Assembly (NCBI GenBank): GCA_024875585.1
Contig: GCA_024875585.1_4107.1
DNA: 64,000 nt
Reading direction: 5' to 3' (one strand)
Source: a phage
Shown: positions 7,136 through 23,034 of the stretch, piece by piece
Layout: every line of letters begins with the position of its first letter
How positions within the stretch are numbered: the first letter of the stretch is position 1
The notes under the pieces: model-generated
Told to the model about the DNA's origin: nothing
Database searches by the model: none
The model's input: the letters and a program-made list of their open reading frames with translations, nothing else
Translations under genes and position numbers: made by a program

Positions 7136-7138
7136 GTA

Positions 7139-7166
7139 TTGACAAAGTATCTTAGTACTGTATAAT
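7139..7166 (+). promoter_or_regulatory. sigma70-type promoter, class IV (second copy)
   Basis: near-identical to 6868-6900; leader hairpin 7181-7200. Confidence 0.6.
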
Positions 7167-7221
7167 AGTTTACATCAAGTGAGGGGAAACGGTTCCCCTC
7201 CTAACAAAGAGAGAAATAAAA

Positions 7222-7545
7222 ATGACTATGATCCTTGCCCAGAAAGTAGAACTGAAAATTGTAACTTCCTTTGACATTAAAGTTAATCGCTGGACTGATC
7301 GGAACGGTAATACTTACCACTCTTGCTACGTGTCTGCATTGATTGGTGATCGTTGGGAAGACTTGGGACACGAAACCTTTACATACGGTTATGGTACGCA
7401 AGGCGAATACACTGGTTTGGAGATCATTAAAGAAACCGTTATAGGTTTCAACCCGAAAGAAAAAGTTATTCACCGCATCGAAAAAGAGATTAACAAAGAA
7501 ATAACAGTTCGCTACTACGATGTAAAACGTAAGAAAGACATGTAA
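7222..7545 (+). CDS. hypothetical protein (107 aa); paralog of 1181..1525
   Basis: ORF+SD; FTYGYG and C-terminal VKRKKD shared. Confidence 0.7.
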   Translation: MTMILAQKVELKIVTSFDIKVNRWTDRNGNTYHSCYVSALIGDRWEDLGHETFTYGYGTQGEYTGLEIIKETVIGFNPKEKVIHRIEKEINKEITVRYYDVKRKKDM

Positions 7546-7567
7546 TAGAATCCATTTAAAGTACTAT

Positions 7568-7596
7568 TTGACATTACACAGATAGTACTTTATAAT
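7568..7596 (+). promoter_or_regulatory. sigma70-type promoter
   Basis: TTGACA-N17-TATAAT. Confidence 0.55.
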
Positions 7597-7640
7597 AGAC
7601 TCTAACTTGTAGTACTAACTTAACTAATAGGATGTATACC

Positions 7641-8036
7641 ATGATTACTAAATTCTACGCTACCCGTGAAGCTGCCCGTATTGTTGCACGCGAGGAAGGA
7701 GCGGCATTTAAAGACATGGGCAAAGATGCACCGAAAGGCCAACGCTGGAGCGTACAGTTCAAAGAAATCTCTGATATTGTGAATTCACCTGAACCAGTAC
7801 TGACAGCAGCAGAACAGAAGAAAGCTGATGAACTGGCGGCAATTCTTAACGCTCAAGATGAATTCGTCGAGGGTGCTGATATCCAGGTTGTAGTAAATTC
7901 GAATGCATGGACTCACGCGGATCATCTGGCTAACCTGAAGCGTCCAAGCGTACTGATTCGCAACCAGAAAGAGATCCGTCATGACCGTAAGGGTAATCGT
8001 GTAACAGTATACAGTAAACGCCGCCAGGTTATCTAA
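7641..8036 (+). CDS. hypothetical protein (131 aa), GC-richer than neighbours
   Basis: ORF; start ATG 7641 or 7632; host-like codon usage by eye. Confidence 0.6.
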   Translation: MITKFYATREAARIVAREEGAAFKDMGKDAPKGQRWSVQFKEISDIVNSPEPVLTAAEQKKADELAAILNAQDEFVEGADIQVVVNSNAWTHADHLANLKRPSVLIRNQKEIRHDRKGNRVTVYSKRRQVI

Positions 8037-8058
8037 TAACTTGCAGTTCTAACAACAC

Positions 8059-8083
8059 GGCGGGATCTGTTCCCGCCTTTTTT
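8059..8083 (+). terminator. rho-independent terminator
   Basis: GGCGGGA-TCTGT-TCCCGCC then TTTTTT. Confidence 0.75.
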
Positions 8084-8098
8084 ACAGGATAAACTAAA

Positions 8099-8353
8099 AT
8101 GATTAAGGTAAAACTATCTAAAGATAATATCTTGCGGGTACACTATAAAGCCCCTCAGAGAATCATCACAAAGGCCGTACAGCTTGCGAATGAGTTTATT
8201 AATGGTAATCTATTACCTAGGAAGTTAAGCAACGGAAAACTGCGTGTAATCGATGTAGACACTAACAACAGAATAGTAATAGAGAATACCGGAAAGATAA
8301 ACCTATATGAACACCAACAATATAATAAGAAAATAAAACTAATTAGTCGTTGA
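8099..8353 (+). CDS. hypothetical protein (84 aa)
   Basis: ORF+SD AGGATAAACTAAA. Confidence 0.65.
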   Translation: MIKVKLSKDNILRVHYKAPQRIITKAVQLANEFINGNLLPRKLSNGKLRVIDVDTNNRIVIENTGKINLYEHQQYNKKIKLISR

Positions 8354-8378
8354 CAGTACTCAAATGTTTTAGTACTAT
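8350..8378 (+). promoter_or_regulatory. sigma70-type promoter (TTGACAGTACTCAAAT...TACTAT)
   Basis: TTGACA-N17-TACTAT. Confidence 0.5.
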
Positions 8379-8407
8379 ATATCTATACCAACACGGAGAG
8401 AAACAAA

Positions 8408-8626
8408 ATGAAATTATCTAAAATCGAAAAGAAAACTATTGACGTAGCTATCCAACATGGTTACACATTTCGTAATGATTTACATTTTACCAATTTTCAA
8501 CAAGGGTATCGTACTATTAAAAAACTAATTGACAAAGGTTTATTAGTTAAAGTAGACAACGGCAACGGCGTTGAATATCAACCAACACAGGACGCATTTA
8601 ATTTTAAGAAATATAATATTATCTAA
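8408..8626 (+). CDS. hypothetical protein (72 aa)
   Basis: ORF+SD CGGAGAGAAACA. Confidence 0.65.
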   Translation: MKLSKIEKKTIDVAIQHGYTFRNDLHFTNFQQGYRTIKKLIDKGLLVKVDNGNGVEYQPTQDAFNFKKYNII

Positions 8627-8655
8627 TTGACAGTACTCAAATATTTTAGTACTAT
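8627..8655 (+). promoter_or_regulatory. sigma70-type promoter (copy of 8350 module)
   Basis: TTGACAGTACTCAAAT...TACTAT. Confidence 0.5.
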
Positions 8656-8682
8656 ATCTATACCAACACAGGAAAAAACAAA

Positions 8683-9267
8683 ATGCGTAATTATACTAAA
8701 TTCATCCGTACACTGTCAGAAATGGAAACCAACAAAGAGATCTTGACAGCTTGTCGGTTAGCTGGTCTGGAGATCATCGGTGCGGGGTCTTCCCGTATTG
8801 TATTCGCTTTAAATGATCGGTTAGTGATTAAGGTCGCGAATTGTGATGCAGGTGTAGAACAAAATGAAACAGAATGTAAAGTATGGAATTTTTTAGATTA
8901 TGACCGCCCTCAGTTGAAACAGTTCTTTGCTAAAGTACATATGCATTTAAGCGATCCTGATAATATGTTTATTGTTATGGATCGGTTGAGTACTGCAAGT
9001 AAAGGCAGTGTAAAGCACGTTAATGCGTGCAACGAATTAAAGTACAATATTAAACGTAATGCCATTGAACGCCAACACCGCTTTGCTGATGCACTACAAC
9101 ACGTAGATGATACATTATCAACACTAACGATTAGAGATATCAGAAAACAGAATATCGGCCAGGATCGAAATGGACTGATTAAAGTACTTGATTATGGTTT
9201 AACCCGCAATATCTGGAATCAGTACTATAAAAAGCGTGATGTAGCAGCAAGTAAGGTAACACGATAA
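8683..9267 (+). CDS. putative protein kinase-like protein (194 aa)
   Basis: IGAGSSRIVF...VIKVA (Gly-loop + Lys), RDIRKQNIG (catalytic-loop-like), LDYGL (DFG-like); from memory, unverified. Confidence 0.4.
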   Translation: MRNYTKFIRTLSEMETNKEILTACRLAGLEIIGAGSSRIVFALNDRLVIKVANCDAGVEQNETECKVWNFLDYDRPQLKQFFAKVHMHLSDPDNMFIVMDRLSTASKGSVKHVNACNELKYNIKRNAIERQHRFADALQHVDDTLSTLTIRDIRKQNIGQDRNGLIKVLDYGLTRNIWNQYYKKRDVAASKVTR

Positions 9268-9274
9268 AAAAGAT

Positions 9275-9372
9275 TAAAAAAGGGATTGACTCCGGTCAGT
9301 CCCTTTGCTATTATATATTCATTGAGAGATAACTCACTGACCCATAGGGTGCGGGAGTGTATCTATTATATA
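9275..9372 (+). repeat. repeated intergenic element copy 3
   Basis: hairpin GGGATTGAC-TCCG-GTCAGTCCC + conserved tail. Confidence 0.65.
9282..9307 (+). terminator. rho-independent terminator
   Basis: stem + TTTG. Confidence 0.55.
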
Positions 9373-9407
9373 AGTATTGAGTACTGAAAACTATTTTTAA
9401 AAAGTAC

Positions 9408-9435
9408 TTGCAATGTACTTAGAATCAAGTATAAT
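9408..9435 (+). promoter_or_regulatory. sigma70-type promoter, class I
   Basis: TTGCAA / TATAAT; leader hairpin 9450-9468. Confidence 0.6.
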
Positions 9436-9489
9436 GTTTTATATCGAGAGGGGGAAATGGTTCTCCCCAATACAATAAGGAATAAAATC

Positions 9490-9711
9490 ATGACTACAAT
9501 GACTTGCATTTACGCTTCCAATCTTCTGAATGATGCGGCCTTTAATGTTGATTCAGAATATCAATGTTATCGGGATGAAAATAAAAAAGTTTTTGTAGTT
9601 GATAATAATGGTTTCCATATTGAATTGCAATCCGGCTTCACTGGCGTTGATGGTAAATCAGTATGGGGCGTACAGGATGATAAAGGTACATATCATTTTA
9701 AACGTAATTAA
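9490..9711 (+). CDS. hypothetical protein (73 aa)
   Basis: start moved from 9457 to ATG after SD TAAGGAATAAAATC. Confidence 0.65.
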   Translation: MTTMTCIYASNLLNDAAFNVDSEYQCYRDENKKVFVVDNNGFHIELQSGFTGVDGKSVWGVQDDKGTYHFKRN

Positions 9712-9714
9712 GTA

Positions 9715-9742
9715 TTGACAAAGTATCTTAGTACTGTATAAT
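9715..9742 (+). promoter_or_regulatory. sigma70-type promoter, class IV
   Basis: TTGACA / TATAAT; two leader hairpins 9763-9804. Confidence 0.6.
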
Positions 9743-9826
9743 AGTTTACATCAAGGGCAACGGGAAGTTTTTAAAACTTCCCTATAGGGAGAATAGATCT
9801 CCCCGATACTAAAAGGAAACAAAAAT

Positions 9827-10099
9827 ATGTCTAGCTACTCCGCTACTATGATCATTAAAGATATGAACGGTAATCCTACTGCTGCTGGTGGATCATTTGG
9901 AAACATTAACTTAGATGGTCGGTTAACCATGCAATCAGCCATCAATGCAGCGAAAGAAGTTTTTAAGAATGAATGCACTGTAAGTAAGCTGGATTATATG
10001 GGATTCGCTATCGAGAAAACTAATCGTTTTGTGAACTACAAAAATCCACTGATGATTGATACCAACCTGAAAGCTAACGAAGTGGAATACTTATTATGA
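9827..10099 (+). CDS. hypothetical protein (90 aa)
   Basis: ORF+SD AAAAGGAAACA. Confidence 0.7.
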   Translation: MSSYSATMIIKDMNGNPTAAGGSFGNINLDGRLTMQSAINAAKEVFKNECTVSKLDYMGFAIEKTNRFVNYKNPLMIDTNLKANEVEYLL

Positions 10100-10287
10100 C
10101 AGTTGAAGAAGTTAAAAAAGTACTGGCAGTTCTACGCTATCATAATCATTGCAAGGTGAAGAATGATCCTGATTATCTTGATTCATCCCTTGAGGAAGAC
10201 ACATTAAACGCAATAAGCTATATGCAAACATTATTAAAACGTATGACCGAAAAGAATAGACCGGACTATATCGGAAATAAAATTTAA
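10096..10287 (+). CDS. hypothetical protein (63 aa)
   Basis: ATGA overlap with upstream gene. Confidence 0.55.
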   Translation: MTVEEVKKVLAVLRYHNHCKVKNDPDYLDSSLEEDTLNAISYMQTLLKRMTEKNRPDYIGNKI

Positions 10288-10294
10288 AAAGTAC

Positions 10295-10322
10295 TTGCAT
10301 TGTAGTTAGATTAACGTATAAT
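10295..10322 (+). promoter_or_regulatory. sigma70-type promoter, class I
   Basis: TTGCAT / TATAAT; leader hairpin 10337-10353. Confidence 0.6.
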
Positions 10323-10373
10323 GTTTTATATCGAGAGGGGAAATGGTTTCCCCTCAAGTCCAGGAGATACACA

Positions 10374-10637
10374 ATGAACACTATCGAAATCACTATCAAT
10401 GCTCACGTATACGACAACGTAGTACTGCAAACTACTATGACCGCTAATGATACCAGAACTTTGCGGAATACTGTTATAAGTGCCGTATGTGCTGCAATTG
10501 GTGATGTATCCCTGGAAAATGCAGAACATATCAACAACGGTTTCACTATGTGCAAACGTGATAACGCAAAACATATCATCGTAGAAGGTTACGGCGGTGT
10601 AGAATATAATCTTTATATGAAAAAAGTACTTGCATAG
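10374..10637 (+). CDS. hypothetical protein (87 aa)
   Basis: ORF+SD CAGGAGATACACA. Confidence 0.7.
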   Translation: MNTIEITINAHVYDNVVLQTTMTANDTRTLRNTVISAVCAAIGDVSLENAEHINNGFTMCKRDNAKHIIVEGYGGVEYNLYMKKVLA

Positions 10638-10657
10638 TAACTAAAACAAAGTATAAT
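10629..10657 (+). promoter_or_regulatory. sigma70-type promoter, class I (overlaps 3' end of previous CDS)
   Basis: TTGCAT / TATAAT; leader hairpin GGGGGAG-ATATC-CTCCCCC. Confidence 0.55.
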
Positions 10658-10704
10658 GTTTTGCATAGGGGGAGATATCCTCCCCCACTAAAAGGAGTAC
10701 TAAA

Positions 10705-10929
10705 ATGGCTAACTTTGATGAACTGATGCGGGAAGTAGCTACCCTGGCAGAAGAGAAGAAATCATTTGATTCTATCTATAACACCTCTTACCGTGATTCA
10801 GTACTGGCATGTAACCAGGATCAAAAAGATGAACTAATCGCCACCTATCATGAAGCGTGGAAGTATTACCGCCAATGGGAGAAAGAAGAAAGTGAGTCTA
10901 CCATTGACGGCCTCAATAATCTAATCTAA
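10705..10929 (+). CDS. hypothetical acidic protein (74 aa)
   Basis: ORF+SD AAAAGGAGTAC. Confidence 0.7.
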   Translation: MANFDELMREVATLAEEKKSFDSIYNTSYRDSVLACNQDQKDELIATYHEAWKYYRQWEKEESESTIDGLNNLI

Positions 10930-10947
10930 AGTTTTATTTCAGTACTA

Positions 10948-10976
10948 TTGACATAGATTGATAGTACTGATATGAT
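10948..10976 (+). promoter_or_regulatory. sigma70-type promoter, class III variant
   Basis: TTGACATAGATTGATAGTACTGA-TATGAT. Confidence 0.55.
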
Positions 10977-11004
10977 AACTTTACTAACTACAAGGGGAAA
11001 CATC

Positions 11005-11262
11005 ATGGAACAATTCACACAATATCGGGTAAATCCTCAAGCTATGGCATACGTAGAAGACCATAAAACGTTACCAGTACAAACACCAATTAAAGGCCAT
11101 ATCTATCGTGCAATGTCATGGAATCCGGCCCAGGATGGCTATAAAACCGTAGCCGTGGGTATGTACTGCGGTAATGGTGAATGGTTTGATCCTAACAATC
11201 CGATTGCACTTGATAGTACTGAAAAAATGAAATGGGCCGACTACATCGAAGATATTTCATAA
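11005..11262 (+). CDS. hypothetical protein (85 aa)
   Basis: start moved from 10972 to ATG after SD CAAGGGGAAACATC. Confidence 0.6.
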   Translation: MEQFTQYRVNPQAMAYVEDHKTLPVQTPIKGHIYRAMSWNPAQDGYKTVAVGMYCGNGEWFDPNNPIALDSTEKMKWADYIEDIS

Positions 11263-11268
11263 AAATTA

Positions 11269-11297
11269 TTTGACAGTACTAACCAGTAATGTATAAT
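11269..11297 (+). promoter_or_regulatory. sigma70-type promoter
   Basis: TTGACA-N17-TATAAT; leader hairpin with covarying GCGGGGG/CTCCCGC. Confidence 0.6.
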
Positions 11298-11352
11298 GTT
11301 TTACATAGAGCGGGGGAATAGTTCTCCCGCCAATAGTTTGGAGTAAAACATT

Positions 11353-11553
11353 ATGTCTATCGCTATCGCCCTGGTCGAAGTACTGAAAGAAGCTAAAGCC
11401 AACCTTATCGATGTACAGATTAAGGAATTGCAAAATGGCTTAATCGGCTGTACTTGTACCGCTGGTGGCCCGTCAGACTATCGGGAATTCGAATCACTTG
11501 AATCGATGGTCCGTTATCTTACAATCATCGTAGAAGATTGGAGAATCATCTAA
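11353..11553 (+). CDS. hypothetical protein (66 aa)
   Basis: ORF+SD TTTGGAGTAAAACATT. Confidence 0.65.
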   Translation: MSIAIALVEVLKEAKANLIDVQIKELQNGLIGCTCTAGGPSDYREFESLESMVRYLTIIVEDWRII

Positions 11554-11564
11554 CAAAAAAAAAG

Positions 11565-11660
11565 AATAAAAAGGGATTGACTCCGGTCAGTCCCTTTGCT
11601 ATTATATACGCATAGACAAAAACTAGCCCACAGGGTGCATAGGTGTATCTAAAATATATA
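11565..11660 (+). repeat. repeated intergenic element copy 4 (diverged tail)
   Basis: same hairpin as copy 3; downstream half partly diverged. Confidence 0.55.
11573..11598 (+). terminator. rho-independent terminator
   Basis: GGGATTGAC-TCCG-GTCAGTCCC + TTTG. Confidence 0.55.
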
Positions 11661-11716
11661 GTTAATAACGGTGAGTAACCATCTGCTGGTGGAGTGAAAA
11701 CTATTAATAAAAAGTA

Positions 11717-11746
11717 TTGACAAAGTATATCAGTACTGCAATAATG
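11717..11746 (+). promoter_or_regulatory. sigma70-type promoter
   Basis: TTGACA, AGTACTG, A/T-rich -10. Confidence 0.45.
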
Positions 11747-11799
11747 TATCTCGTAGGGCGGCAATGGTGCGACGGCCCACAAAGTTAGGAGATACACAA

Positions 11800-12132
11800 A
11801 TGAGTACTTCAATCGCTATCGTTAAAGCTTTCATCCGTACCAACGTTTCATCTGTATTCATTGACGGATTGGATCGGGAAGTAGAATACTCAATCATTAT
11901 CGCACAAACGGCAAACGGTGCTCGGTACATCCTTAATGATAGTGAAGCAAATCACTACTACTTCACTAAAGCCACTGGCTTTAAACGCATCGATGCTGAT
12001 GTAGTATACGCTAAGATGAATAAGCTGGTAGATAAGATTAACACTAAAGGTACTATCGATTTACAGTACTGGACCGAAACCGATCCAGAATATGGATCTC
12101 ACCGCTACCTGAATCCAGGTATTAAAATGTAA
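11800..12132 (+). CDS. hypothetical protein (110 aa)
   Basis: start moved from 11764 to ATG after SD TTAGGAGATACACAA. Confidence 0.65.
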   Translation: MSTSIAIVKAFIRTNVSSVFIDGLDREVEYSIIIAQTANGARYILNDSEANHYYFTKATGFKRIDADVVYAKMNKLVDKINTKGTIDLQYWTETDPEYGSHRYLNPGIKM

Positions 12133-12138
12133 AAAGTA

Positions 12139-12167
12139 CTTGTGTAGCACTTAGATTTAAGTATAAT
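12139..12167 (+). promoter_or_regulatory. sigma70-type promoter, class I
   Basis: TTGTGT / TATAAT; leader hairpin 12182-12200. Confidence 0.6.
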
Positions 12168-12221
12168 GTTTTTCATAGAGAGGGGGAAATGGTTCTCCCT
12201 CATAAATTAAGGAGTTTTATC

Positions 12222-12623
12222 ATGACCTTCTCAATCACTTCCTTCGCTGACGTTTTAGTACTGGCTCGGACTTTTGGCAAAGCTGGCCTTGAGCACGCTG
12301 TAAGTAATGGTTATATGCACCCGGAATATTGCCGCATTATCGGTAGCTGCAAACGTTGGGCCGTGTCCCGTAATATTGAGATTGAAAACTTCAATGATGG
12401 TAACAACGAATATACAGTTGATGCAGTATTCGAATCCGTTGATCTCGGCGGTATCTATAACACTAACCTGAATGATGTGCGTATCGTTCGCACGGGGTTC
12501 GGTGCTTATGATGTATCTATCCGTGAAGCGATGGACAAGGGATACATTAGCAAGGATCAGTTAGCTTACATTATGCAGCAGACTAAAGAGCGTAATGAAG
12601 CACGCACTATCTTAGGTCTGTAA
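12222..12623 (+). CDS. hypothetical protein (133 aa)
   Basis: start moved from 12189 to ATG after SD TAAGGAGTTTTATC. Confidence 0.65.
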   Translation: MTFSITSFADVLVLARTFGKAGLEHAVSNGYMHPEYCRIIGSCKRWAVSRNIEIENFNDGNNEYTVDAVFESVDLGGIYNTNLNDVRIVRTGFGAYDVSIREAMDKGYISKDQLAYIMQQTKERNEARTILGL

Positions 12624-12648
12624 GCATTACACATCACTAAACATCATA

Positions 12649-12666
12649 GGCCGCTCTCTAGCGGCC
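12649..12666 (+). repeat. palindrome GGCCGCT-CTCT-AGCGGCC
   Basis: perfect 7-bp inverted repeat, GC-rich, no T-tract. Confidence 0.35.
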
Positions 12667-12691
12667 TTAACTATATCAGGAGTACATACAC

Positions 12692-12901
12692 ATGATCTAT
12701 ACAGTATACAGCGTTCTAGGCACTATTGCAGGTGTACACGATAACGTCGATGATACTATGAGTACAGTACTGCAACAGGTTCCACTAAAGCCTAAGACAG
12801 TTAAGAAGATGACCGCACGACTAACCAGGGCGACGGCTGGCGTGGAAGTATGGCAGGACTACGGGGATACACAGGTAATCGTAAGCGTAACGAGGGATTA
12901 A
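12692..12901 (+). CDS. hypothetical protein (69 aa)
   Basis: ORF+SD CAGGAGTACATACAC. Confidence 0.6.
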   Translation: MIYTVYSVLGTIAGVHDNVDDTMSTVLQQVPLKPKTVKKMTARLTRATAGVEVWQDYGDTQVIVSVTRD

Positions 12902-12929
12902 TACGTAAAATGATTTAGTACTGATTCAG

Positions 12930-12995
12930 AAAAAAGTCAAGGCGTTTTTAAAATTATGCGTTAAAAAAATGCATAGGTAATCCCTTGACTTTTTT
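12930..12995 (+). repeat. large inverted repeat AAAAAAGTCAAGG...CCTTGACTTTTTT
   Basis: 13-nt arms ~40 nt apart enclosing smaller palindromes; sits between early module and Family A array. Confidence 0.5.
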
Positions 12996-13150
12996 GAAAT
13001 AAAAGGGATTGGACTATGGCAAAATGCGTAGGGGGGCTAAAGTGCGGGTAACTTAGCGGCTTCGATAAAGGGGTATTACGAATAAAATGTTATTGACTTT
13101 TTATATAAATCGTATAAAATATGATTGATAATAATTTTAAGGGAGTCCCT

Positions 13151-13348
13151 GTGCGTATTTTAACTCAAGCAGAACACCACGAAAGACTTATCAATAACAT
13201 GGCTATGATAATGTATAAGTCCCATGACCGTGGTATTGCCTATAAGCGTGAATTAGTACTGGAACTATTCATTGGAACTAACTTTCAGGAAAGGTATGTC
13301 AACGATTGGATTTGGTATTTAATTGAAGATATAACGAGTAAACTATGA
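13151..13348 (+). CDS. Family A small paralog (LGTNYQE-motif protein)
   Basis: motif FIGTNFQERYV; start set to GTG after SD AAGGGAG (track 13121) by alignment to paralogs. Confidence 0.55.
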   Translation: MRILTQAEHHERLINNMAMIMYKSHDRGIAYKRELVLELFIGTNFQERYVNDWIWYLIEDITSKL

Positions 13349-13539
13349 TCATTTTAAATAAAGAAGAATATCAAGAACTGTTACGTAAAAACTTTGTAAA
13401 GATTTATAATACAGACACACACGTAGAACGAATGGAGTTATACCTTTTGATTACATTGGGAACTAACTATCAGGAAAGATGGGTGATTCAATATATGGAT
13501 ACATTGAAAAATAAAATATTGTCCACGAGGAAACAATGA
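13345..13539 (+). CDS. Family A small paralog
   Basis: LGTNYQERWV; ATGA overlap. Confidence 0.65.
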   Translation: MIILNKEEYQELLRKNFVKIYNTDTHVERMELYLLITLGTNYQERWVIQYMDTLKNKILSTRKQ

Positions 13540-13745
13540 AAACTATAACACGAACCCAATCATACGGACTTATCTTGAAATACATGGACTTAATGGTGGA
13601 TATCAGCAAAGACCTGCCTAAAACTGCAATTGAAGTTGCAAGAGCAGAGATCCGCATGTTGGCTGTACTGAACACAAACCATCAGGAAGAGTATGTTGAC
13701 GATTGGATTCGATTTTTAATAGAAGATATTAAGAGTAAACTATGA
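13536..13745 (+). CDS. Family A small paralog
   Basis: LNTNHQEEYV; ATGA overlap. Confidence 0.65.
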   Translation: MKTITRTQSYGLILKYMDLMVDISKDLPKTAIEVARAEIRMLAVLNTNHQEEYVDDWIRFLIEDIKSKL

Positions 13746-13954
13746 TTATATTAACACCTGAAGAATATAAGAAACGTTTTAATTCTGTCCAGACTGAAAT
13801 ATTACTTATATACCTTTCAAATGCAGATCTTAACTTATCAAGGGTAATGGAGAAGGATTTACTTATGGGTGCATTTTTGGATACAGACTTTCAGGAGTAT
13901 TATGTAGGGGAATACTTTATTGCACTTCAGAACCACATTAAGAGTAAACTATGA
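13742..13954 (+). CDS. Family A small paralog
   Basis: FLDTDFQEYYV; ATGA overlap. Confidence 0.65.
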   Translation: MIILTPEEYKKRFNSVQTEILLIYLSNADLNLSRVMEKDLLMGAFLDTDFQEYYVGEYFIALQNHIKSKL

Positions 13955-14166
13955 TTATTCTAGAAAAATCATATCAATATACTGAACGCATCGCTGCCAG
14001 ACAACTTGAAATCCTCATAATATACGAAGAGACTTCTGATTTAAACTTAGCCGAGGTATTGGAAAATGAAATACTTTTGGGTGCATTCTTGGGAACAGAC
14101 TATCAGGAGTATTATGAGGAAAAGTATTTGTCATCTCTTGAGAAATACGTCAGGAGCAAACTATGA
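13951..14166 (+). CDS. Family A small paralog
   Basis: FLGTDYQEYYE; ATGA overlap. Confidence 0.65.
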   Translation: MIILEKSYQYTERIAARQLEILIIYEETSDLNLAEVLENEILLGAFLGTDYQEYYEEKYLSSLEKYVRSKL

Positions 14167-14390
14167 AACATTTAAGTAATATAGAGAAGAATAAAATTAT
14201 CATTGCTGTAATAAACAAATATTTTACACTTCCACAAAAAGAATGTTTATCTATAAGGGAACACAGGATAAACACCACCGAGATTCGCATGTTGGCTGTA
14301 CTGGGGACTAACTTCCAAGAAGGCTATGTTCATGAGCACATCGTTGCACTCACTAATTACATAATGGACAAATGTAATGAACATCATTAA
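14163..14390 (+). CDS. Family A small paralog
   Basis: LGTNFQEGYV; ATGA overlap. Confidence 0.65.
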   Translation: MKHLSNIEKNKIIIAVINKYFTLPQKECLSIREHRINTTEIRMLAVLGTNFQEGYVHEHIVALTNYIMDKCNEHH

Positions 14391-14601
14391 TAACTTTGAA
14401 TACGAGGCCCGTGCTAAGAGTGCCAGAAAAAAAGAGAACACCATTTACTTCACTATGATGTACTTACAATGGACTGAAATTGAAGAAAAGGTTGCTGAAG
14501 TATGGATGTTGGAATTCATGGGGACGCAGTATCAGAATAGGTTTGCGGGTGAGTATATCAATGTTCTTATGAAACAAATAGAAAGGAAGGAAAAGAACTA
14601 A
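14377..14601 (+). CDS. Family A small paralog
   Basis: MGTQYQNRFA. Confidence 0.6.
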   Translation: MNIINNFEYEARAKSARKKENTIYFTMMYLQWTEIEEKVAEVWMLEFMGTQYQNRFAGEYINVLMKQIERKEKN

Positions 14602-14690
14602 TGGAGGGATGCTGTACTTTATTGGAACTTTTATATATTCATGAACACATAGTTGCCCTCACAAATCTAATAAAGGATAAATGTAAATGA
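14601..14690 (+). pseudogene. internally deleted Family A remnant (29-codon mini-ORF)
   Basis: MEGCCTLLELLYIHEHIVALTNLIKDKCK matches N-terminal bit plus C-terminal helix of the 14163 member; keeps stop/start overlaps on both sides. Confidence 0.5.
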
Positions 14691-14944
14691 AACACTTGAC
14701 TGATGATGAACATGAAACTATAATTCGTAAACTAACCCCCATCACAAGGATAGTCTACGGTGATCCCAGCCTCACATGGAACCAAATGCGAGCTAAAGTT
14801 AATGAGCTATGGTTGCTGTACTTTATGGGGACTCAATATCAAGATAAGTTTTGCACAGAATATATCGAACAATTAACGAATGTTATACAGGATAAACTAA
14901 ATGAACGAATTGTGGAAAAATATGAAAACTTTATCAAGCATTGA
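14687..14944 (+). CDS. Family A small paralog
   Basis: MGTQYQDKFC. Confidence 0.6.
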   Translation: MKHLTDDEHETIIRKLTPITRIVYGDPSLTWNQMRAKVNELWLLYFMGTQYQDKFCTEYIEQLTNVIQDKLNERIVEKYENFIKH

Positions 14945-15173
14945 GTATCAGACTGCCCTCTTCTCTCTTCTAAACACCCTCCGCACGAACAATAAACTTT
15001 ATAATTCCCGTGAAGCTGATATTGTCAACGCTGATGTATATCTTAATAAATTTATAGGGACTAACTATCAAGAACTGTTTGTTTTACGATATATCTCTGC
15101 ACTAAGAAACGAAATATCAGATAAAACCCGCCAAGCCAGAAGAGAATGGAAGAGACAATGCAACAAAGACTAA
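14901..15173 (+). CDS. Family A small paralog
   Basis: FIGTNYQELFV; start uncertain (overlaps previous ORF). Confidence 0.55.
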   Translation: MNELWKNMKTLSSIEYQTALFSLLNTLRTNNKLYNSREADIVNADVYLNKFIGTNYQELFVLRYISALRNEISDKTRQARREWKRQCNKD

Positions 15174-15409
15174 ATCACAAAATGTATTGTAAACTATTAC
15201 AGAATCTAGGACAAAAACACTATGATACAGTATCTGAAATATTACCCTATGATATCATGCGTTTAATTCATAGTGAGGCAGAGATGCTTGTACTGATGAC
15301 CGGTACTGATAAAACAGCAATCACCAGATCGATAGAGCAATATATTGATGCACACTGTCAATGTATTAGAACTGAGATATGGAGGCGAGTAAATGAAAGT
15401 ACTGAATGA
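15146..15409 (+). CDS. Family A small paralog (divergent)
   Basis: degenerate motif MTGTDKTAIT; start uncertain. Confidence 0.5.
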   Translation: MEETMQQRLNHKMYCKLLQNLGQKHYDTVSEILPYDIMRLIHSEAEMLVLMTGTDKTAITRSIEQYIDAHCQCIRTEIWRRVNESTE

Positions 15410-15608
15410 GTATCAGTATCATTGGAGGTTACAAACTATAAGAGGGAAAGTTGTTAGTATTTCTTTAGATAAGTCTATTGCACAAGAGGACAAATGTGTT
15501 ATAATAGCTGAAATGAAGTTGGGTGTATTTGTAGGAACAAACTATCAAAACATCTACACTGACGTATTATTAAGTGCCTTACGCAACAAGGTGTTATCCA
15601 GAGAATGA
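15393..15608 (+). CDS. Family A small paralog
   Basis: FVGTNYQNIYT. Confidence 0.6.
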   Translation: MKVLNEYQYHWRLQTIRGKVVSISLDKSIAQEDKCVIIAEMKLGVFVGTNYQNIYTDVLLSALRNKVLSRE

Positions 15609-15823
15609 GAAAATTAATAGGTTACGAATATGTTAAGCTTCTGAAAACCTGTAGTATTAGCAGGGTAAAGATTCAATCTGATAAGAGTATTCCTGTTGAA
15701 CTAAAGTACGCAATGATGGCTGAACTTTATGTAGGTGCACTATTGGGGACAAACTATCAACAAATGTATGTAGACCTATGGGTTGACGCACTACTGAAAG
15801 AGGTCCAAAGTAAATGCAAATGA
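15605..15823 (+). CDS. Family A small paralog
   Basis: LLGTNYQQMYV; ATGA overlap. Confidence 0.65.
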   Translation: MRKLIGYEYVKLLKTCSISRVKIQSDKSIPVELKYAMMAELYVGALLGTNYQQMYVDLWVDALLKEVQSKCK

Positions 15824-16035
15824 TTCATTTATCTTACTATGAATATCAAAAACGTTTAAATGCATCAAGGGATATAAGGATTAAAATCTACAATAACAAA
15901 AGATTGAAATCTGAAGCCAAAAAAATCAAAATGATAGAAGCTGAATTATGCAACTTCCTTGGGACGAACTATCAGGATGATAAGGTAACAAACTATCTTA
16001 GAGAACTAATGATTAGTATCAAGAGTAAATGTTAG
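15814..16035 (+). CDS. Family A small paralog
   Basis: FLGTNYQDDKV. Confidence 0.6.
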   Translation: MQMIHLSYYEYQKRLNASRDIRIKIYNNKRLKSEAKKIKMIEAELCNFLGTNYQDDKVTNYLRELMISIKSKC

Positions 16036-16039
16036 GCAG

Positions 16040-16297
16040 ATGTACATGAAAATGATTAAATTATCTCAAGCAAAATATAAAGAACGCCTGGTGAAAATTG
16101 CACCTAGACTTAATGAAATCCATCACGGAGAAGTCATTAAACACGGAAATAAGATGATTATGAAACTTGAGTTAAAGGTGGGTGCATTCATAGGAACAAA
16201 CTATCAGGAGTATTATGTAGATGAATACATAATCGCACTTAAGAGATACATTGGAAGAAAACTATATCTACAAACTAAAGAATTGTATTGCAAATAA
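16040..16297 (+). CDS. Family A small paralog
   Basis: FIGTNYQEYYV. Confidence 0.6.
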   Translation: MYMKMIKLSQAKYKERLVKIAPRLNEIHHGEVIKHGNKMIMKLELKVGAFIGTNYQEYYVDEYIIALKRYIGRKLYLQTKELYCK

Positions 16298-16578
16298 ATG
16301 CAAGGATAATGAATATGAAAATGATCAATTTAAGTAAAGATGAATATACCGAGCGTATGACAAAAATTACGCACAAACGTAATACAATCTATCACAACCC
16401 AGAAATTCAACACAGTAAGAAAATGATTATGATGCGTGAGTTAAAGATGGGTGTATTCTTAGGAACAAACTATCAAGATACAGAAGTAAATCGCTTAATC
16501 GCGGAGTTACTACTGGAAATCAGAGGTAAGCTGTACTTTCATCAAATGACCCAACCACTGAGGTGTACTAAGAAATGA
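16288..16578 (+). CDS. Family A small paralog
   Basis: FLGTNYQDTEV; start among several nearby ATGs. Confidence 0.55.
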   Translation: MQINARIMNMKMINLSKDEYTERMTKITHKRNTIYHNPEIQHSKKMIMMRELKMGVFLGTNYQDTEVNRLIAELLLEIRGKLYFHQMTQPLRCTKK

Positions 16579-16790
16579 TCAACATCACATTGCAAGAAAG
16601 ATTCATCCGAATCAACTATGCAATTACCAAATTAGATGCTACTATAGGATTCCAAAGTCTACCGTTCCAAACAAGAATGATATTAGAGTGCGAAGCTAAA
16701 TTGGGTGTACTGTTAGGAACGCAACACCAACAACGATATGTGGAAATCTGGATTGATCTTTTAACCCAAAATGTACATGAGAAAATGTAA
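16575..16790 (+). CDS. Family A small paralog
   Basis: LLGTQHQQRYV; ATGA overlap. Confidence 0.65.
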   Translation: MINITLQERFIRINYAITKLDATIGFQSLPFQTRMILECEAKLGVLLGTQHQQRYVEIWIDLLTQNVHEKM

Positions 16791-17027
16791 ATGAAAAATG
16801 AAATGATATACTTAACGAATGAAGAGTTTCAAGAGAAGATGTTAAAAATCTATGATAATACTCTTGAGTACGTTCCAAATCAATCAATATATGAAGTGTC
16901 TGCGAATGTATTATTTCAGAAGCTACCATACGTTCTTGGAACGGATAAACAAGAATTTATGGTCAAAAATATGATTGAACATCTTATGATGAGTATTAAG
17001 GAAAAAGTGAATGCAAAAGAAAAATGA
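16791..17027 (+). CDS. Family A small paralog
   Basis: VLGTDKQEFMV. Confidence 0.6.
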   Translation: MKNEMIYLTNEEFQEKMLKIYDNTLEYVPNQSIYEVSANVLFQKLPYVLGTDKQEFMVKNMIEHLMMSIKEKVNAKEK

Positions 17028-17274
17028 AATGATATACTTAACACCTGCTGAGTTAACAGAAAGACTAGTTAAATCCAGAAGATATACAAATCAACTTCCT
17101 CACAACCCAAATCAAACCCCAGCGGAAAGGAGTGCAGAAGTTTTATTCCAATCACTACCATACCTTCTTGGAACTAATAGACAAGAGTATCATATCGAAC
17201 GTATAATTAAATATCTTAAAATTACTATTAAGGAAAAAGTAAATGCTCAAGAATTTAAAAATCCTAACAGTTAA
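17011..17274 (+). CDS. Family A small paralog
   Basis: LLGTNRQEYHI; near-duplicate N-terminus of the 16791 member. Confidence 0.6.
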   Translation: MQKKNEMIYLTPAELTERLVKSRRYTNQLPHNPNQTPAERSAEVLFQSLPYLLGTNRQEYHIERIIKYLKITIKEKVNAQEFKNPNS

Positions 17275-17485
17275 TGAATATCATAAGATTGTAATGAAAA
17301 CTAATAGTGCAATTTCTAAAAAATCAAACCCAAAGTACATACTGGAACACACATTTGAAGAACGTCAATTAGCTTTAGTTGAAGCAAAACTTCTTGCACT
17401 ATTAGGAACAAACTATCAGGAAGAATACATCAGAAAACTAATATACCTTTTAACTAAACACATCAGGAAAAGAAAAAAAGCATGA
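17243..17485 (+). CDS. Family A small paralog
   Basis: LLGTNYQEEYI. Confidence 0.6.
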   Translation: MLKNLKILTVNEYHKIVMKTNSAISKKSNPKYILEHTFEERQLALVEAKLLALLGTNYQEEYIRKLIYLLTKHIRKRKKA

Positions 17486-17712
17486 AGCACTTGACAGATG
17501 ATGAACATGGGCTTATAGTAATGGATGTAATCAACATCGAATACAAAAAGTTGATACGCTATCGTTGTTATGAAGATAAGCAACTAGTTCTAGCAGAACA
17601 GAAGTTGTTTCGACTCTTAAACACAAACTTCCAAGCACAATACGAAGAATCGTATATGTACCTTTTGGCGAGGAAAGCAAAAAGAGATTATGAAAATTTT
17701 AAGCAAAGGTGA
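17482..17712 (+). CDS. Family A small paralog
   Basis: LLNTNFQAQYE; N-terminus MKHLTDDEH shared with 14687 member. Confidence 0.6.
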   Translation: MKHLTDDEHGLIVMDVINIEYKKLIRYRCYEDKQLVLAEQKLFRLLNTNFQAQYEESYMYLLARKAKRDYENFKQR

Positions 17713-17911
17713 TTCAGTAATATTACTTATAGAGAGTTCAAATAAATTCTTAAACATAACACTGTCTGATATAGATGAAGATGATAAAGAAGTACTGAGA
17801 GCAGATTTAAGAGTACTGTTACATCTCGGAACAAACCTACAAGAAGAATATGTAGAGTACTACATTGATGAACTTAAAGAATCAGTACTGAGAAGATGCA
17901 AATGCGAATGA
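17690..17911 (+). CDS. Family A small paralog
   Basis: HLGTNLQEEYV. Confidence 0.6.
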   Translation: MKILSKGDSVILLIESSNKFLNITLSDIDEDDKEVLRADLRVLLHLGTNLQEEYVEYYIDELKESVLRRCKCE

Positions 17912-18123
17912 TTACCGACGAAGAATACCTAACAATTATAAATGGATTGTTTTTGAAGTTGTTTGTTATTAACACATCAGATATACCAGATATGGATAAA
18001 ATTATTAAGAGAAATGAAATCTATGTTCTAGCTACCCTGGGAACTAACTATCAAGAATGCAATATTAATGATTATATTAATACACTTAAAGGAGCGATTG
18101 AACTAAAATGCCAAAACCACTAG
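17896..18123 (+). CDS. Family A small paralog
   Basis: TLGTNYQECNI. Confidence 0.6.
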   Translation: MQMRMITDEEYLTIINGLFLKLFVINTSDIPDMDKIIKRNEIYVLATLGTNYQECNINDYINTLKGAIELKCQNH

Positions 18124-18323
18124 GAACAGCAGAATACATTGAACTCATGGGATTACACTTCTCATCCTTTCAGAAACTTATGCGAGAATCAAAGAATGAT
18201 TTAGAATATACCATCAGAGGTTCAGATTTAAGAATGCTTCTCACCCTAGACACAGATTCCCAAGAGAGATTTGTCAATGAGCATATTAGAGCACTTTTAA
18301 TGGAAATTAAAAGTAAACTATGA
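18108..18323 (+). CDS. Family A small paralog
   Basis: TLDTDSQERFV. Confidence 0.6.
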   Translation: MPKPLGTAEYIELMGLHFSSFQKLMRESKNDLEYTIRGSDLRMLLTLDTDSQERFVNEHIRALLMEIKSKL

Positions 18324-18535
18324 AGGTAATATCAAACCAAGAGTACTTGGCACTATTCAGGAAGAATAATCACAAATATATGGCACTTGATTCAAGAACT
18401 GATATAGGGGAACTTGAAAAAAATCTTTTGCGTTCAGAGATGATAGTACTGACACTCTTAGGAACACAACATCAAGAGAGAACTGTTGATTCATATATTG
18501 AGATTCTTAAGAAGCTTATACAGGAAAAACTATGA
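18320..18535 (+). CDS. Family A small paralog
   Basis: LLGTQHQERTV; ATGA overlap. Confidence 0.65.
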   Translation: MKVISNQEYLALFRKNNHKYMALDSRTDIGELEKNLLRSEMIVLTLLGTQHQERTVDSYIEILKKLIQEKL

Positions 18536-18762
18536 GAATCATAACACAAACAGACATATTTAAGTTAGCAAGGGAACATACATCTGAAATTGATGCTATA
18601 GTATCAAAAAGTTACAATGACCCTTATACACAAGATGTGCACTACAATGAATTATGGGTGTATATACTTTTAGGTACAAATTATCAAGAGCAAGCAGTAC
18701 AGAAGTATTTGGCAGCTTTAAGTACTGCTACTGCTAATAGTATAGGTATTAAAAAATGCTAG
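18532..18762 (+). CDS. Family A small paralog
   Basis: LLGTNYQEQAV; ATGA overlap. Confidence 0.65.
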   Translation: MRIITQTDIFKLAREHTSEIDAIVSKSYNDPYTQDVHYNELWVYILLGTNYQEQAVQKYLAALSTATANSIGIKKC

Positions 18763-18992
18763 TACTGACAGAACTAGAAATGTATCATAGATTTAATAAG
18801 TACTATCATTTACTTAAGCCTATACAGAGGATTAAATGTCCATTTGAAGAGAAACAGGTATTAATTTATGAGCATAAGTTATTTGTATCATTAGGTACGA
18901 ATGAACAAGAGTATTATTTGAAGTTGTACTTAATTACTTTAATTGAATTGATTAATCACAAAACACAGAAAGCTAAGAAATCTAAAAAATGA
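18756..18992 (+). CDS. Family A small paralog
   Basis: SLGTNEQEYYL. Confidence 0.6.
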   Translation: MLVLTELEMYHRFNKYYHLLKPIQRIKCPFEEKQVLIYEHKLFVSLGTNEQEYYLKLYLITLIELINHKTQKAKKSKK

Positions 18993-19327
18993 AAACTAAT
19001 ATTCAACTCAAGGTATACATATCTTATGAATCTATATACATCAAATGCAGTCTATGTAAAGATGTAATGGATTATAAAGGTAAGCCATTCACAATTACTT
19101 ACAGTCTAACAGGAGGCTTTTATATATCTTTTGTTGATTACGAAAATAAAATATACAAGCACATTGATATTAAAGATTTAAGTACCTTGTCAGATGAGGA
19201 ATACTTTCAAGAATCATTAGTATGGGATTTAGAGTTTCCTATGACATTAGTACACAAAATGATAGTACTAATGAAAGAAACTAAACCTGAGCCGAGTGGT
19301 TATGAAGAATTCATTATTGAGTATTAA
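18989..19327 (+). CDS. Family B paralog (E-E-x-F-Q-x-S-L-V-x-D motif protein)
   Basis: motif EEYFQESLVWD; first Family B member, embedded in Family A array. Confidence 0.6.
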   Translation: MKTNIQLKVYISYESIYIKCSLCKDVMDYKGKPFTITYSLTGGFYISFVDYENKIYKHIDIKDLSTLSDEEYFQESLVWDLEFPMTLVHKMIVLMKETKPEPSGYEEFIIEY

Positions 19328-19339
19328 GAGTACTGATAT

Positions 19340-19555
19340 ATGAAAAGATTATCATACAAAGATTACAGTAAACTTATCAGTACTTTACAACCAGAAATTA
19401 GAAGAATTAATTATCTTCCTATACCCAACGAAGAACGTGTAGTACTGAAAAATGAGTTAATATTAAAACGCACAGTAGGTACTAACTATCAAGATAATAG
19501 TGTTTGCGATTTAATTAGAGGGTTAATGATCACAATAAAGGCCAAGTGCTATTGA
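19340..19555 (+). CDS. Family A small paralog
   Basis: TVGTNYQDNSV. Confidence 0.6.
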   Translation: MKRLSYKDYSKLISTLQPEIRRINYLPIPNEERVVLKNELILKRTVGTNYQDNSVCDLIRGLMITIKAKCY

Positions 19556-19561
19556 CAGTAC

Positions 19562-19590
19562 TTGACGGAGCTTTTCATTACTGATATAGT
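19562..19590 (+). promoter_or_regulatory. sigma70-type promoter (TTGACG-N17-TATAGT)
   Basis: TTGACG 19562-19567, TATAGT 19585-19590, TG at -15/-14. Confidence 0.5.
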
Positions 19591-19619
19591 ACACTAACGT
19601 TAATCATAGGGTAGAAATT

Positions 19620-19865
19620 ATGTTAAAATTTTTAAATTTCCTTATCGTCTTGTGTATTGTTCTTGGGATTGCACCGTTTGTACTGGTGTATATGGATTCA
19701 GATGAAATGCAAAAGATGAATTGCACAAAGACGGGACAGAGTAGAGAAGAGACGATTCTTATGCCTGTTACTGTTATTGTTAATAATATGCCCATTACAA
19801 ACATGGTCCCTACCCTAACGACAACGTACCAGTACTCTTGTACAGACGGGGAGAGGTGGAGATGA
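19620..19865 (+). CDS. small membrane protein (81 aa)
   Basis: N-terminal hydrophobic helix FLNFLIVLCIVLGIAPFVLVY. Confidence 0.5.
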   Translation: MLKFLNFLIVLCIVLGIAPFVLVYMDSDEMQKMNCTKTGQSREETILMPVTVIVNNMPITNMVPTLTTTYQYSCTDGERWR

Positions 19866-20182
19866 AATTTAATATAGCAAAAACATCGAATGTATGTATA
19901 TTTGGTTATGCAGAAGAGTTAGGTGATATTGACATTCTTTTGTACAAAAAGGATGGTGTTATGCATTTCAAGTACCAGGATGAAGAGGCAGACAATTATC
20001 TTTTGCCTAATTTAGTACAAATGCAGGAAGAGGAATTATTCCAGTACAGCTTAGTATATGACATTGATATTTGCACGATGCCAGTACTAATTAATATTCA
20101 AAAAGTGATGCTCGATGTGTTTGATAGGCTAATACAAGGCACACAAGGAAGAACCATATATGTCAATGTACAAGACAATTAA
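19862..20182 (+). CDS. Family B paralog
   Basis: EELFQYSLVYD; start moved to ATG after SD GAGGTGGAG (track 19838). Confidence 0.6.
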   Translation: MKFNIAKTSNVCIFGYAEELGDIDILLYKKDGVMHFKYQDEEADNYLLPNLVQMQEEELFQYSLVYDIDICTMPVLINIQKVMLDVFDRLIQGTQGRTIYVNVQDN

Positions 20183-20375
20183 TCAAGAATGGAAGAATCA
20201 AAAGTACAGAGAATTCAATAGGAATTTTACAAAAGACGAATTGAATATAAAAACAACAGAATTTGATATGTTTATTTTTCTCGGAACACGTTCTCAGGAG
20301 CAATTTGTTCATTATTATATAAATTCGTTGCGAGCGGAGATAGTATGCAAAACAAAGGGTATTATAAAAAGGTAA
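20160..20375 (+). CDS. Family A small paralog
   Basis: FLGTRSQEQFV. Confidence 0.55.
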   Translation: MSMYKTINQEWKNQKYREFNRNFTKDELNIKTTEFDMFIFLGTRSQEQFVHYYINSLRAEIVCKTKGIIKR

Positions 20376-20611
20376 ACCAACATTTGTACGCTACAAAGTA
20401 CAGGGATTTTTGTTTAAAGGGTGGTGATGAAGATTTTTCTTTGCGATTATCAGAATTTAATCTGTTATTTTATCTTGGTACATCGGAACAAGAAGAAATG
20501 GCACAGAAATTTCTCAATCACCTTGTACAAAAAATTAATATGCAAATTTTGATGCTTAAGTTACAGGATGAGATAAATGAATATGAACCCAACAATAGTA
20601 CAGGATCTTAA
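20345..20611 (+). CDS. Family A small paralog
   Basis: YLGTSEQEEMA. Confidence 0.55.
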   Translation: MQNKGYYKKVNQHLYATKYRDFCLKGGDEDFSLRLSEFNLLFYLGTSEQEEMAQKFLNHLVQKINMQILMLKLQDEINEYEPNNSTGS

Positions 20612-22504: not shown

Positions 22505-22980
22505 AGTTTAGTTTAGATGCTGCTTTTAAATTTGTACACAAGATAGAAACAATATATCGTACATTATGTGCAATACGATTAGTAACATCTGAACTTGATG
22601 TTGGTAAAAGGTATCAGGTATGGAATAACACATTTCTAGACAAAGAGCGTTGTTCAACTGGGTTTAATATTTTATCATTTAATCCAAGTAATTGTTACCC
22701 AGAGAAGCATGAGCGTTATCCGAATGATGACATGTGGTTTGAGTACAAAGAAGATGGTGATATGTCGTTCATTGAAGTTCCTGATGATTTTAATGCACAA
22801 GATTTAACAGAAGAATGGTGGTTCCAGCAGAATTTAGTCCACGATGATATTGATTTATTTTTTTATGTAGTATTTAAAATGCTTTATCACAACAAGATAG
22901 TACAAGATAGTGTATTTTTTTCATGTCTATATATTGATGATTTGTACAATGAAATTCAAATCAACATGCCTGTATCGTAA
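22483..22980 (+). CDS. Family B paralog
   Basis: EWWFQQNLVHD. Confidence 0.6.
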   Translation: MQYMSDLEFSLDAAFKFVHKIETIYRTLCAIRLVTSELDVGKRYQVWNNTFLDKERCSTGFNILSFNPSNCYPEKHERYPNDDMWFEYKEDGDMSFIEVPDDFNAQDLTEEWWFQQNLVHDDIDLFFYVVFKMLYHNKIVQDSVFFSCLYIDDLYNEIQINMPVS

Positions 22981-23005
22981 GATATGGGCTTTTTTTGTTT
23001 TGGTA

Positions 23006-23034
23006 TTGACATAGAAGTACAAAACTGTTATCAT
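23006..23034 (+). promoter_or_regulatory. sigma70-type promoter (TTGACA-N17-TATCAT)
   Basis: internal promoter in Family B array; strong SD AAAGGAGG follows. Confidence 0.55.

Follow-up and report, generated by a model that had tools for sequence, protein, structure and literature searches.

The 64,000-nucleotide stretch of phage DNA analysed here (NCBI GenBank assembly GCA_024875585.1, contig GCA_024875585.1_4107.1; hereafter the window) contains, from position 13151 to position 20611, a tandem array of small paralogous genes that we call Family A. We found that these genes are real and under purifying selection, that they encode a simple helical fold predicted with high confidence, and that the array heads the unique sequence that follows the direct terminal repeat (DTR) of the genome. 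Our best explanation, held tentatively and at slightly less than even confidence, is that the array forms an early polycistronic repertoire of small scaffold proteins whose diversified surfaces would bind host factors.

The window is an Asteriusvirus-type sequence (PBECO4/121Q-type jumbo coliphages) with Escherichia phage UE-S1 as its closest match (95.7% identity), and the region is present in 36 Escherichia and Salmonella phage records. Under the best-matching record, every gene is annotated as 'hypothetical protein'. Family A is found in two genera, represented by Asteriusvirus and Klebsiella phage Muenster.

Membership of the Family A array

A hidden Markov model (HMM) of Family A matched 28 consecutive open reading frames (ORFs) on the + strand between 13121/13151 and 20611 (E 6e-18 to 3e-27), together with two outlying + strand ORFs at 31982-32200 (E 8.5e-8) and 32178-32369 (E 5.4e-14). 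The - strand ORFs of the window gave no matches, and neither did reversed or shuffled ORFs, used as a control, at E up to 10. In the ORF listing the family appears as an unbroken + strand run of genes of 64-96 amino acids (aa) each, carrying the motif L-G-T-N-Y-Q-E within the consensus M-K-I-L-T-x-x-E-Y ... E-x-x-L-x-x-L-G-T-N-Y-Q-E-x-Y-V-x-x-Y-I-x-x-L-x-x-x-I-x-x-K. Across the alignment the Q and one L are invariant and the T nearly so, with a mean column identity of 28%. Family A is the same protein family as phrog_4148, which 29 of the 30 window members matched with E values under 1e-3 (5.7e-27 at best), the matches covering positions 1-72 of the 74 in the profile. PHROGs differs in listing a cluster only, and phrog_4148 (sub-cluster phrog_28039) carries no functional assignment there.

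The array opens with gene 1 (13151-13348; GTG start set by homology; E 1.6e-20), followed by gene 2 (13345-13539; E 3.5e-20), gene 3 (13536-13745; E 6.6e-23), gene 4 (13742-13954; E 6.3e-24), gene 5 (13951-14166; E 1.3e-19), gene 6 (14163-14390; E 4.3e-26) and gene 7 (14377-14601; E 5.7e-23), all on the + strand like the rest of the array. An apparent 85-nucleotide (nt) 'gap' at 14602-14686 codes for what is left of a deleted Family A member, its C-terminal part (...HEHIVALTNLIKDKCK*), for which Sharanji and SD-15_S21 retain an intact 52-aa ortholog (OG30, where OG denotes an ortholog group; P0134). The run continues with gene 8 (14687-14944; E 5.6e-27) and gene 9 (14922-15173, the longest ORF starting at 14901; E 5.8e-21). 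Beyond the ORF at 15146-15409, discussed below, follow gene 10 (15393-15608; E 1.7e-23), gene 11 (15605-15823; E 5.3e-25), gene 12 (15820-16035; E 3e-26), gene 13 (16052-16297; E 3.2e-27), gene 14 (16321-16578; E 2.6e-27), gene 15 (16575-16790; E 4.5e-22), gene 16 (16803-17027; E 9.4e-21), gene 17 (17029-17274; E 7.7e-23), gene 18 (17243-17485; E 3.9e-22) and gene 19 (17482-17712; E 6.3e-18). Genes 20 to 25 occupy 17690-17911 (E 7.3e-23), 17902-18123 (E 6.9e-25), 18108-18323 (E 2.6e-20), 18320-18535 (E 6.3e-23), 18532-18762 (E 8.5e-23) and 18756-18992 (E 1.5e-22), respectively. The last three members are gene 26 (19340-19555; E 9.4e-23), whose group OG26 has no ortholog found in Sharanji or SD-15_S21, gene 27 (20160-20375; E 1.1e-21) and gene 28 (20345-20611; E 1e-19).

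The ORF at 15146-15409 scored only 4 bits against the Family A HMM, reads GTDKTAI in place of GTNYQE and has lost the invariant Q. It nevertheless aligned in register with the family (hhalign P=0.0025, compared to 0.1-0.6 for control ORFs) and is uninterrupted in 7 genomes; on this basis it is probably a degenerate, 29th member. Counting the 28 clear members, this probable derivative and the two outlying genes, Family A totals 30-31 copies in the window. A preliminary description of this DNA, made from the sequence alone, had reported about 31 tandem paralogs of ~70 aa, and its count, coordinates and motif are borne out. Its array start at 13151 is likewise correct: fEgEco12 and vB_Ec-M-J have an ATG start codon where this phage has GTG, and a Shine-Dalgarno (SD) sequence AAGGGAG lies upstream at 13139-13145 on the + strand, as seen in a comparison of the three phages.

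Three genes within the array do not belong to Family A. Two are short members of a second paralogous family, Family B, whose own array of 40 tandem overlapping genes (100-240 aa; motif EE-x-[YL]-F-Q-x-S) occupies ~20.6-46.3 kb of the window. They lie at 18989-19327 (Family B HMM E 3.3e-14) and at 19862-20182 (phrog_13866; E 1.8e-14; ATG at 19862 with a strong SD sequence). The third, at 19620-19865, is an unrelated 81-aa gene with a hydrophobic N-terminus (phrog_8826), identified from the ORF listing and its PHROGs match. The two outlying Family A genes sit, in turn, inside the Family B array; this reciprocal placement had been described before, and both HMMs agree on it.

Outside the window, we observed a 269-aa protein (P0163; gene at 10001-10810) in which an N-terminal Family A domain is fused to ~200 unrelated residues. 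This fusion is encoded on ~350-kb Asteriusvirus phage contigs within E. coli genome assemblies. Many Family A matches derive from such assemblies, in agreement with published accounts of lytic phage genomes within bacterial assemblies (PMC12768965).

Conservation and evolution of the array

We compared the array with those of related phages. Sharanji and vB_Ec-M-J carry syntenic orthologs, mostly in a 1:1 relation, with 70-100% aa identity compared to 30-55% identity to the second-best paralog. The ratio of nonsynonymous to synonymous substitution rates (dN/dS), calculated by the Nei-Gojobori method and pooled over ortholog pairs, was 0.36-0.40. Over seven genomes the overall value was 0.36; the G-T-x-x-Q loop stood at 0.11 and the helices at 0.32-0.45. 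Syntenic orthology together with a dN/dS of ~0.36 indicates that the Family A genes are real and under purifying selection, and no positive selection was detected by coarse per-segment dN/dS. Synonymous divergence (dS) differs widely between genes, from 0 to ~0.96, a spread that fits mosaic exchange between phages.

The paralogs share a mean identity of only 25%, with a maximum of 53%. For 43% of genes the closest paralog is the immediate neighbour, compared to 7% expected (p<0.0002), which points to local tandem duplication. No DNA-level tandem repeat of gene-length period was found in the array, indicating that the copies are too old to have retained one. The seven genomes carry 26-30 copies each, falling into 34 ortholog groups, of which 19 are universal and 15 patchy, and synteny is kept throughout. 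Judged from these comparisons, the array is old and mostly stable, with a slow birth and death of members.

Two local irregularities were seen in this comparison. The paralogs at 13742 and 13951 are adjacent and mutually closest (49% identity; OG4 and OG5), and Sharanji and SD-15_S21 have them in reversed order, possibly as a result of recombination or gene conversion between neighbours, or of ambiguous orthology. In UE-S1, the closest relative, the array (136351-146740) is without ortholog group 4, and several of its coding sequences are annotated as truncated (110-180 nt); these truncations may be sequencing frameshifts.

Position of the array relative to the terminal repeat

Alignment with fEgEco12 and vB_Ec-M-J placed the inner DTR boundary at about 13052/13053, so that window positions 1-13052 belong to the ~21-kb DTR and the array begins ~100 nt beyond it, in unique sequence. 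The same arrangement was found in the relatives. In vB_Ec-M-J the annotated DTR covers 1-21,525, with 21,594/21,624 as the start of the array. The DTR of fEgEco12 measures 20,993 bp, as confirmed by PhageTerm and restriction digests (PMC13070987), and its first array gene starts at 21,091. The array of G17 ends 20.7 kb from the end of the record, consistent with the ~20-kb redundancy of that genome, and in Klebsiella phage Muenster the Family A array is likewise placed by the DTR. From the aligned boundaries, the array is thus the first unique block after the left DTR and is transcribed inward. By the T5-type definition of pre-early genes, which are encoded within the terminal repeat, Family A does not fall into this class (DTR end at ~13052, array start at 13151).

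A location of Family A inside the DTR, hinted at by the coordinates of the Sharanji record, was ruled out by the annotated and experimentally confirmed DTR ends; that record does not begin at the physical genome end. Separately, the 8.3-kb terminal repeat of UE-S1 has been judged to be probably mis-assigned in the paper describing fEgEco12 (PMC13070987).

Expression signals and probable operon structure

Promoter and terminator calls in the window come from consensus scans only, with promoters called by matching to the sigma70 consensus. At the head of the array, a sigma70-like promoter (TTGACT-16-TAAAAT, 10/12 matches) lies at 13093-13120 on the + strand and is conserved in three phages. A second intergenic sigma70-like promoter (TTGACG-17-TATAGT, with a TG extension) was found at 19562-19590 (+), ahead of the 81-aa gene. 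When the array and the sequence downstream were scanned, no + strand terminator-like site was detected before a hairpin at 22968-22989 (+), which is followed by a promoter-like site at 23006-23034. These two intergenic promoter-like sites of the array compare with 25 in the DTR part, and the median gap between genes is -5.5 nt in the array compared to 79.5 nt in the DTR part. Three further matches of 11/12 lie inside array ORFs; across the region, promoter-like matches are no more frequent than in shuffled sequence, and the informative part of the signal is their placement and 12/12 quality in the gaps between DTR genes.

With starts set by homology, the 31 junctions of the array comprise 13 ATGA overlaps, 11 longer overlaps (7-32 nt) and 7 non-overlapping junctions. 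Pairing with the anti-SD sequence is stronger at array starts (mean -4.5 kcal/mol) than at random codons (-1.9 kcal/mol; p=2e-7), with -5.4 kcal/mol at the starts of DTR genes, and SD-like sites are retained at about half of the array starts. This retention indicates that re-initiation need not be the sole route of translation, and that direct ribosome loading is possible at many starts. Long polycistronic transcripts with coupled translation, as read from these signals, are therefore plausible. The preliminary description had taken the stop/start overlaps to imply a long polycistronic transcript read by re-initiation. Its first half fits the overlaps (24 of 31 junctions), the head promoter-like site, the single further intergenic one at 19562 and the absence of a terminator-like site before 22968, while re-initiation is not necessarily the only mechanism at work.

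The timing of expression can be approached by analogy. DTR genes of the relative PA5oct are highly transcribed early by the host RNA polymerase (PMC7318152), and the searched literature yielded no Asteriusvirus transcriptome. Early expression of the Family A array is probable on this comparison.

Predicted fold and surface diversity

We modelled gene 13 with AlphaFold (AF2), using its longest-ORF version (16040-16294), and obtained a three-helix bundle with a predicted local distance difference test score (pLDDT) of 96.3 and a predicted template modelling score (pTM) of 0.81. Conserved columns occur only in the core, which is hydrophobic, and in the G-T-x-x-Q-E loop; in the model this loop bridges to the N-terminal strand. 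The surfaces, by comparison, are diversified, with isoelectric points (pI) of 4.4-10.0 and net charges of -7 to +10; about half of the paralogs are basic, with a pI above 9.

The model had no informative structural neighbour, and no Family A match above noise was found in Pfam, NCBIfam, PADLOC, the PHROGs functional categories or PDB sequences. Known anti-defence or defence families gave no significant match in PADLOC, Pfam, the PHROGs functional categories or PDB sequences, none of which is a dedicated anti-defence library. An Rfam search also returned no matches. In phAPEC6, the Family A orthologs gp462c-489c are absent from the examined portion of the 62-protein table of virion proteins identified by mass spectrometry (MS) (PMC7247149). 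Their absence from this portion argues for a non-structural role, albeit weakly, since small proteins may escape MS detection.

Proposed role and comparison with known systems

We infer a repertoire of binders from the small size of the proteins, their stable helical scaffold and diversified charged surfaces, the early-type position and promoter, the probable expression of the genes as a block, and the presence/absence variation between genomes. Under this explanation, host RNA polymerase would transcribe the array, early or delayed-early, into a single long polycistronic mRNA or into two, to which read-through from the many promoters of the DTR may add. Overlapping stop and start codons together with residual SD sites would couple translation, such that the whole Family A repertoire is made together. 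The products would be small intracellular binders built on one scaffold, each tuned to another host target, and would serve host takeover or the neutralisation of host defences rather than act as virion components.

The analogy behind this reading comes from phage takeover clusters. The T5 pre-early genes in the terminal repeat, the T4 early genes and the SPO1 host-takeover module consist of small genes with host-type promoters, whose products bind and subvert host proteins. Like the Family A array, they group numerous small genes toward the leading part of the genome. The genes of those clusters are, however, unrelated to one another, whereas the array consists of ~30 paralogs of one fold. 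The comparison with T5 differs in addition in that the array lies just outside the DTR and that here individual promoters belong to the DTR genes rather than to the array. A second parallel is provided by the multigene families MGF110, MGF360 and MGF505 of African swine fever virus (ASFV) and by the poxvirus host-range families, which are tandem paralogs near the genome termini with variable copy number and roles in host interaction and immune evasion. Family A shares with them the tandem arrangement near a terminus and a copy number that varies between isolates. It shows no homology to these viral families, which belong to another host domain. Its paralogs, with a mean identity of 25%, are old copies, not the product of recent 'accordion' amplification, and they probably belong to one translationally coupled operon.

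In a broader and more speculative form, which we consider possible but doubtful, Rak2-like jumbo phages would devote ~10% of their genome to two unrelated families (~30 copies of Family A and ~40 of Family B), expressed from early post-DTR operons as combinatorial intracellular binders. Every paralog would then counteract its own host factor or immune system, and the two families, built on folds without relatives of solved structure, would be a phage counterpart of the ASFV and poxvirus multigene families.

Jumbo phages with large expansions of a single domain are already known. Bacillus phage G encodes a ~35-copy zinc-ribbon family whose function has only been guessed (Iyer et al. 2021, PMC7824862). 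There, too, a single small domain is expanded to about 30 copies in one giant phage genome; the difference is that Family A is a three-helix bundle whose copies form one contiguous, overlapping putative operon beside the terminal repeat. The RaK2 paper states that ~10% of gene products are paralogues and nothing further (PMC3622015), and the CBB paper mentions 22 paralogous ORFs (PMC5259590). No description of the architecture, genomic position, fold or evolution of the Family A array was found in the searched literature, including papers that mention Asteriusvirus.

Genes without known function make up >80% of these 350-kb phages, and ~70 of those in the window fall into just two families. 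Since Family A is real, selected, probably early and of a confidently predicted simple fold, it makes a block of this genomic dark matter experimentally tractable. Should each paralog prove to inactivate a host factor or a defence, the array would offer a wealth of new small inhibitors and could help to explain the broad host range of these therapy-candidate phages.

Relationship to Family B and alternative explanations

Family A and Family B resemble each other in organisation. Both are lineage-specific sets of tandem overlapping paralogs in the same post-DTR region, and both have no known function or structural neighbour. We give some credence, although a low one, to the idea that the two work together as adaptors, inhibitors or cognate partners in one functional system. 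The two families adjoin and intermingle in Asteriusvirus; in the 40-kb stretch of Klebsiella phage Muenster that was covered, 13 A and 28 B genes are strongly interleaved, and a 4.5-kb metagenomic contig carries a mixture (3 A and 7 B genes). However, we found no 1:1 pairing or fixed order. Moreover, fENko-Kae01, which belongs to a different genus, has a 23-member Family B array directly after its DTR and no Family A gene within the 43 kb examined, which indicates that Family B does not need Family A and is the more widely distributed of the two.

Less probable still is that the Family A proteins are small nucleic-acid-binding regulators, with a helix-loop-helix or helix-turn-helix (HTH)-like architecture, that tune phage or host transcription or translation. 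The L-G-T between two helices superficially recalls the turn of an HTH, and the basic half of the family (pI above 9) would suit such a function. The range of net charge from -7 to +10 argues against a uniform DNA-binding role, and Family A gave neither an HTH profile match nor an HTH structural neighbour.

The remaining alternatives fare considerably worse. It had been suggested in the preliminary description that the Family B fold is present in minimal form in Family A, a reading we now regard as very improbable. In its favour, both families have an invariant Q after an aromatic residue and a hydrophobic residue at +4, and they are co-located. The overlap between the motifs is limited to these three positions, which are flanked by L-G-T-N in Family A and by S-E-E-x-Y in Family B. 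Profile-profile comparison with hhalign, using two independent alignments, gave a probability of 0.2% and 1 aligned column. The Family B model (pLDDT 85.5) combines a six-stranded sheet with a helix at the N-terminus and helices at the C-terminus, an alpha+beta fold in contrast to the all-alpha bundle of Family A, and the motif Q opens helix 3 in the Family A model but ends a short helix in that of Family B. In addition, Family B occurs alone. Common ancestry of the two families was rejected on the basis of the hhalign comparisons, the different folds and the unrelated flanking motif positions.

Equally hard to credit is the view that the array is decaying or selfish filler, made of duplicated ORFs without current function. 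One deletion remnant, one degenerate member and 15 patchy ortholog groups could be read this way, but none of the 28 ORFs is disrupted, overall dN/dS is 0.36, with 0.11 for the loop, 19 ortholog groups are kept in all 7 genomes despite ~25% identity between paralogs, and the family spans two genera. Finally, small polymorphic proteins encoded near a genome end bring to mind the polymorphic internal protein (IP) genes of T4, and yet it is highly unlikely that Family A proteins are packaged and injected with the DNA, the phAPEC6 orthologs not being among the virion proteins in the examined portion of that table, a point that is weak given that small proteins escape MS.

Additional observations on Family B and the terminal repeat

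Within the Family B array, the gene at 27002-27730 (242 aa) contains two tandem Family B cores (…MDEAALFQESLVFDKKYICTLEEM… and …MNEAELFQASLVFDKKYICTFEEV…), an arrangement that points to an internal domain duplication or to the fusion of two neighbouring genes. In fENko-Kae01, the product of the gene at 17145-17630 (ENKO_077) is a weak Family B match (E 8.5e-4), and its record states 'identified with LC-MS/MS analysis' (liquid chromatography with tandem MS), a hint that at least one Family B-like product may be within reach of proteomic detection.

In the DTR part of the window (1-13052) lie 39 small genes, all on the + strand and spaced by a median of 79.5 nt. Its 25 intergenic near-consensus sigma70-type promoters, many of them 12/12 matches, amount to about one per gene or two and usually lie 30-50 nt ahead of the next start; by contrast, the downstream arrays are promoter-poor. 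Two identical 28-nt hairpins (AAAGGGATTGACTCCGGTCAGTCCCTTT) at 9279-9306 and 11570-11597 have TTGACT, a -35 box, within their stem and TATTAT after it, and resemble elements that are terminator-like and promoter-like at once. Near 12980-13012, shortly before the DTR boundary, there is a related hairpin. The window also holds smaller sets of paralogs, namely a pair of 107-114-aa genes inside the DTR (1181-1525 and 7222-7545) and four genes of 91-103 aa at 53375-54784.

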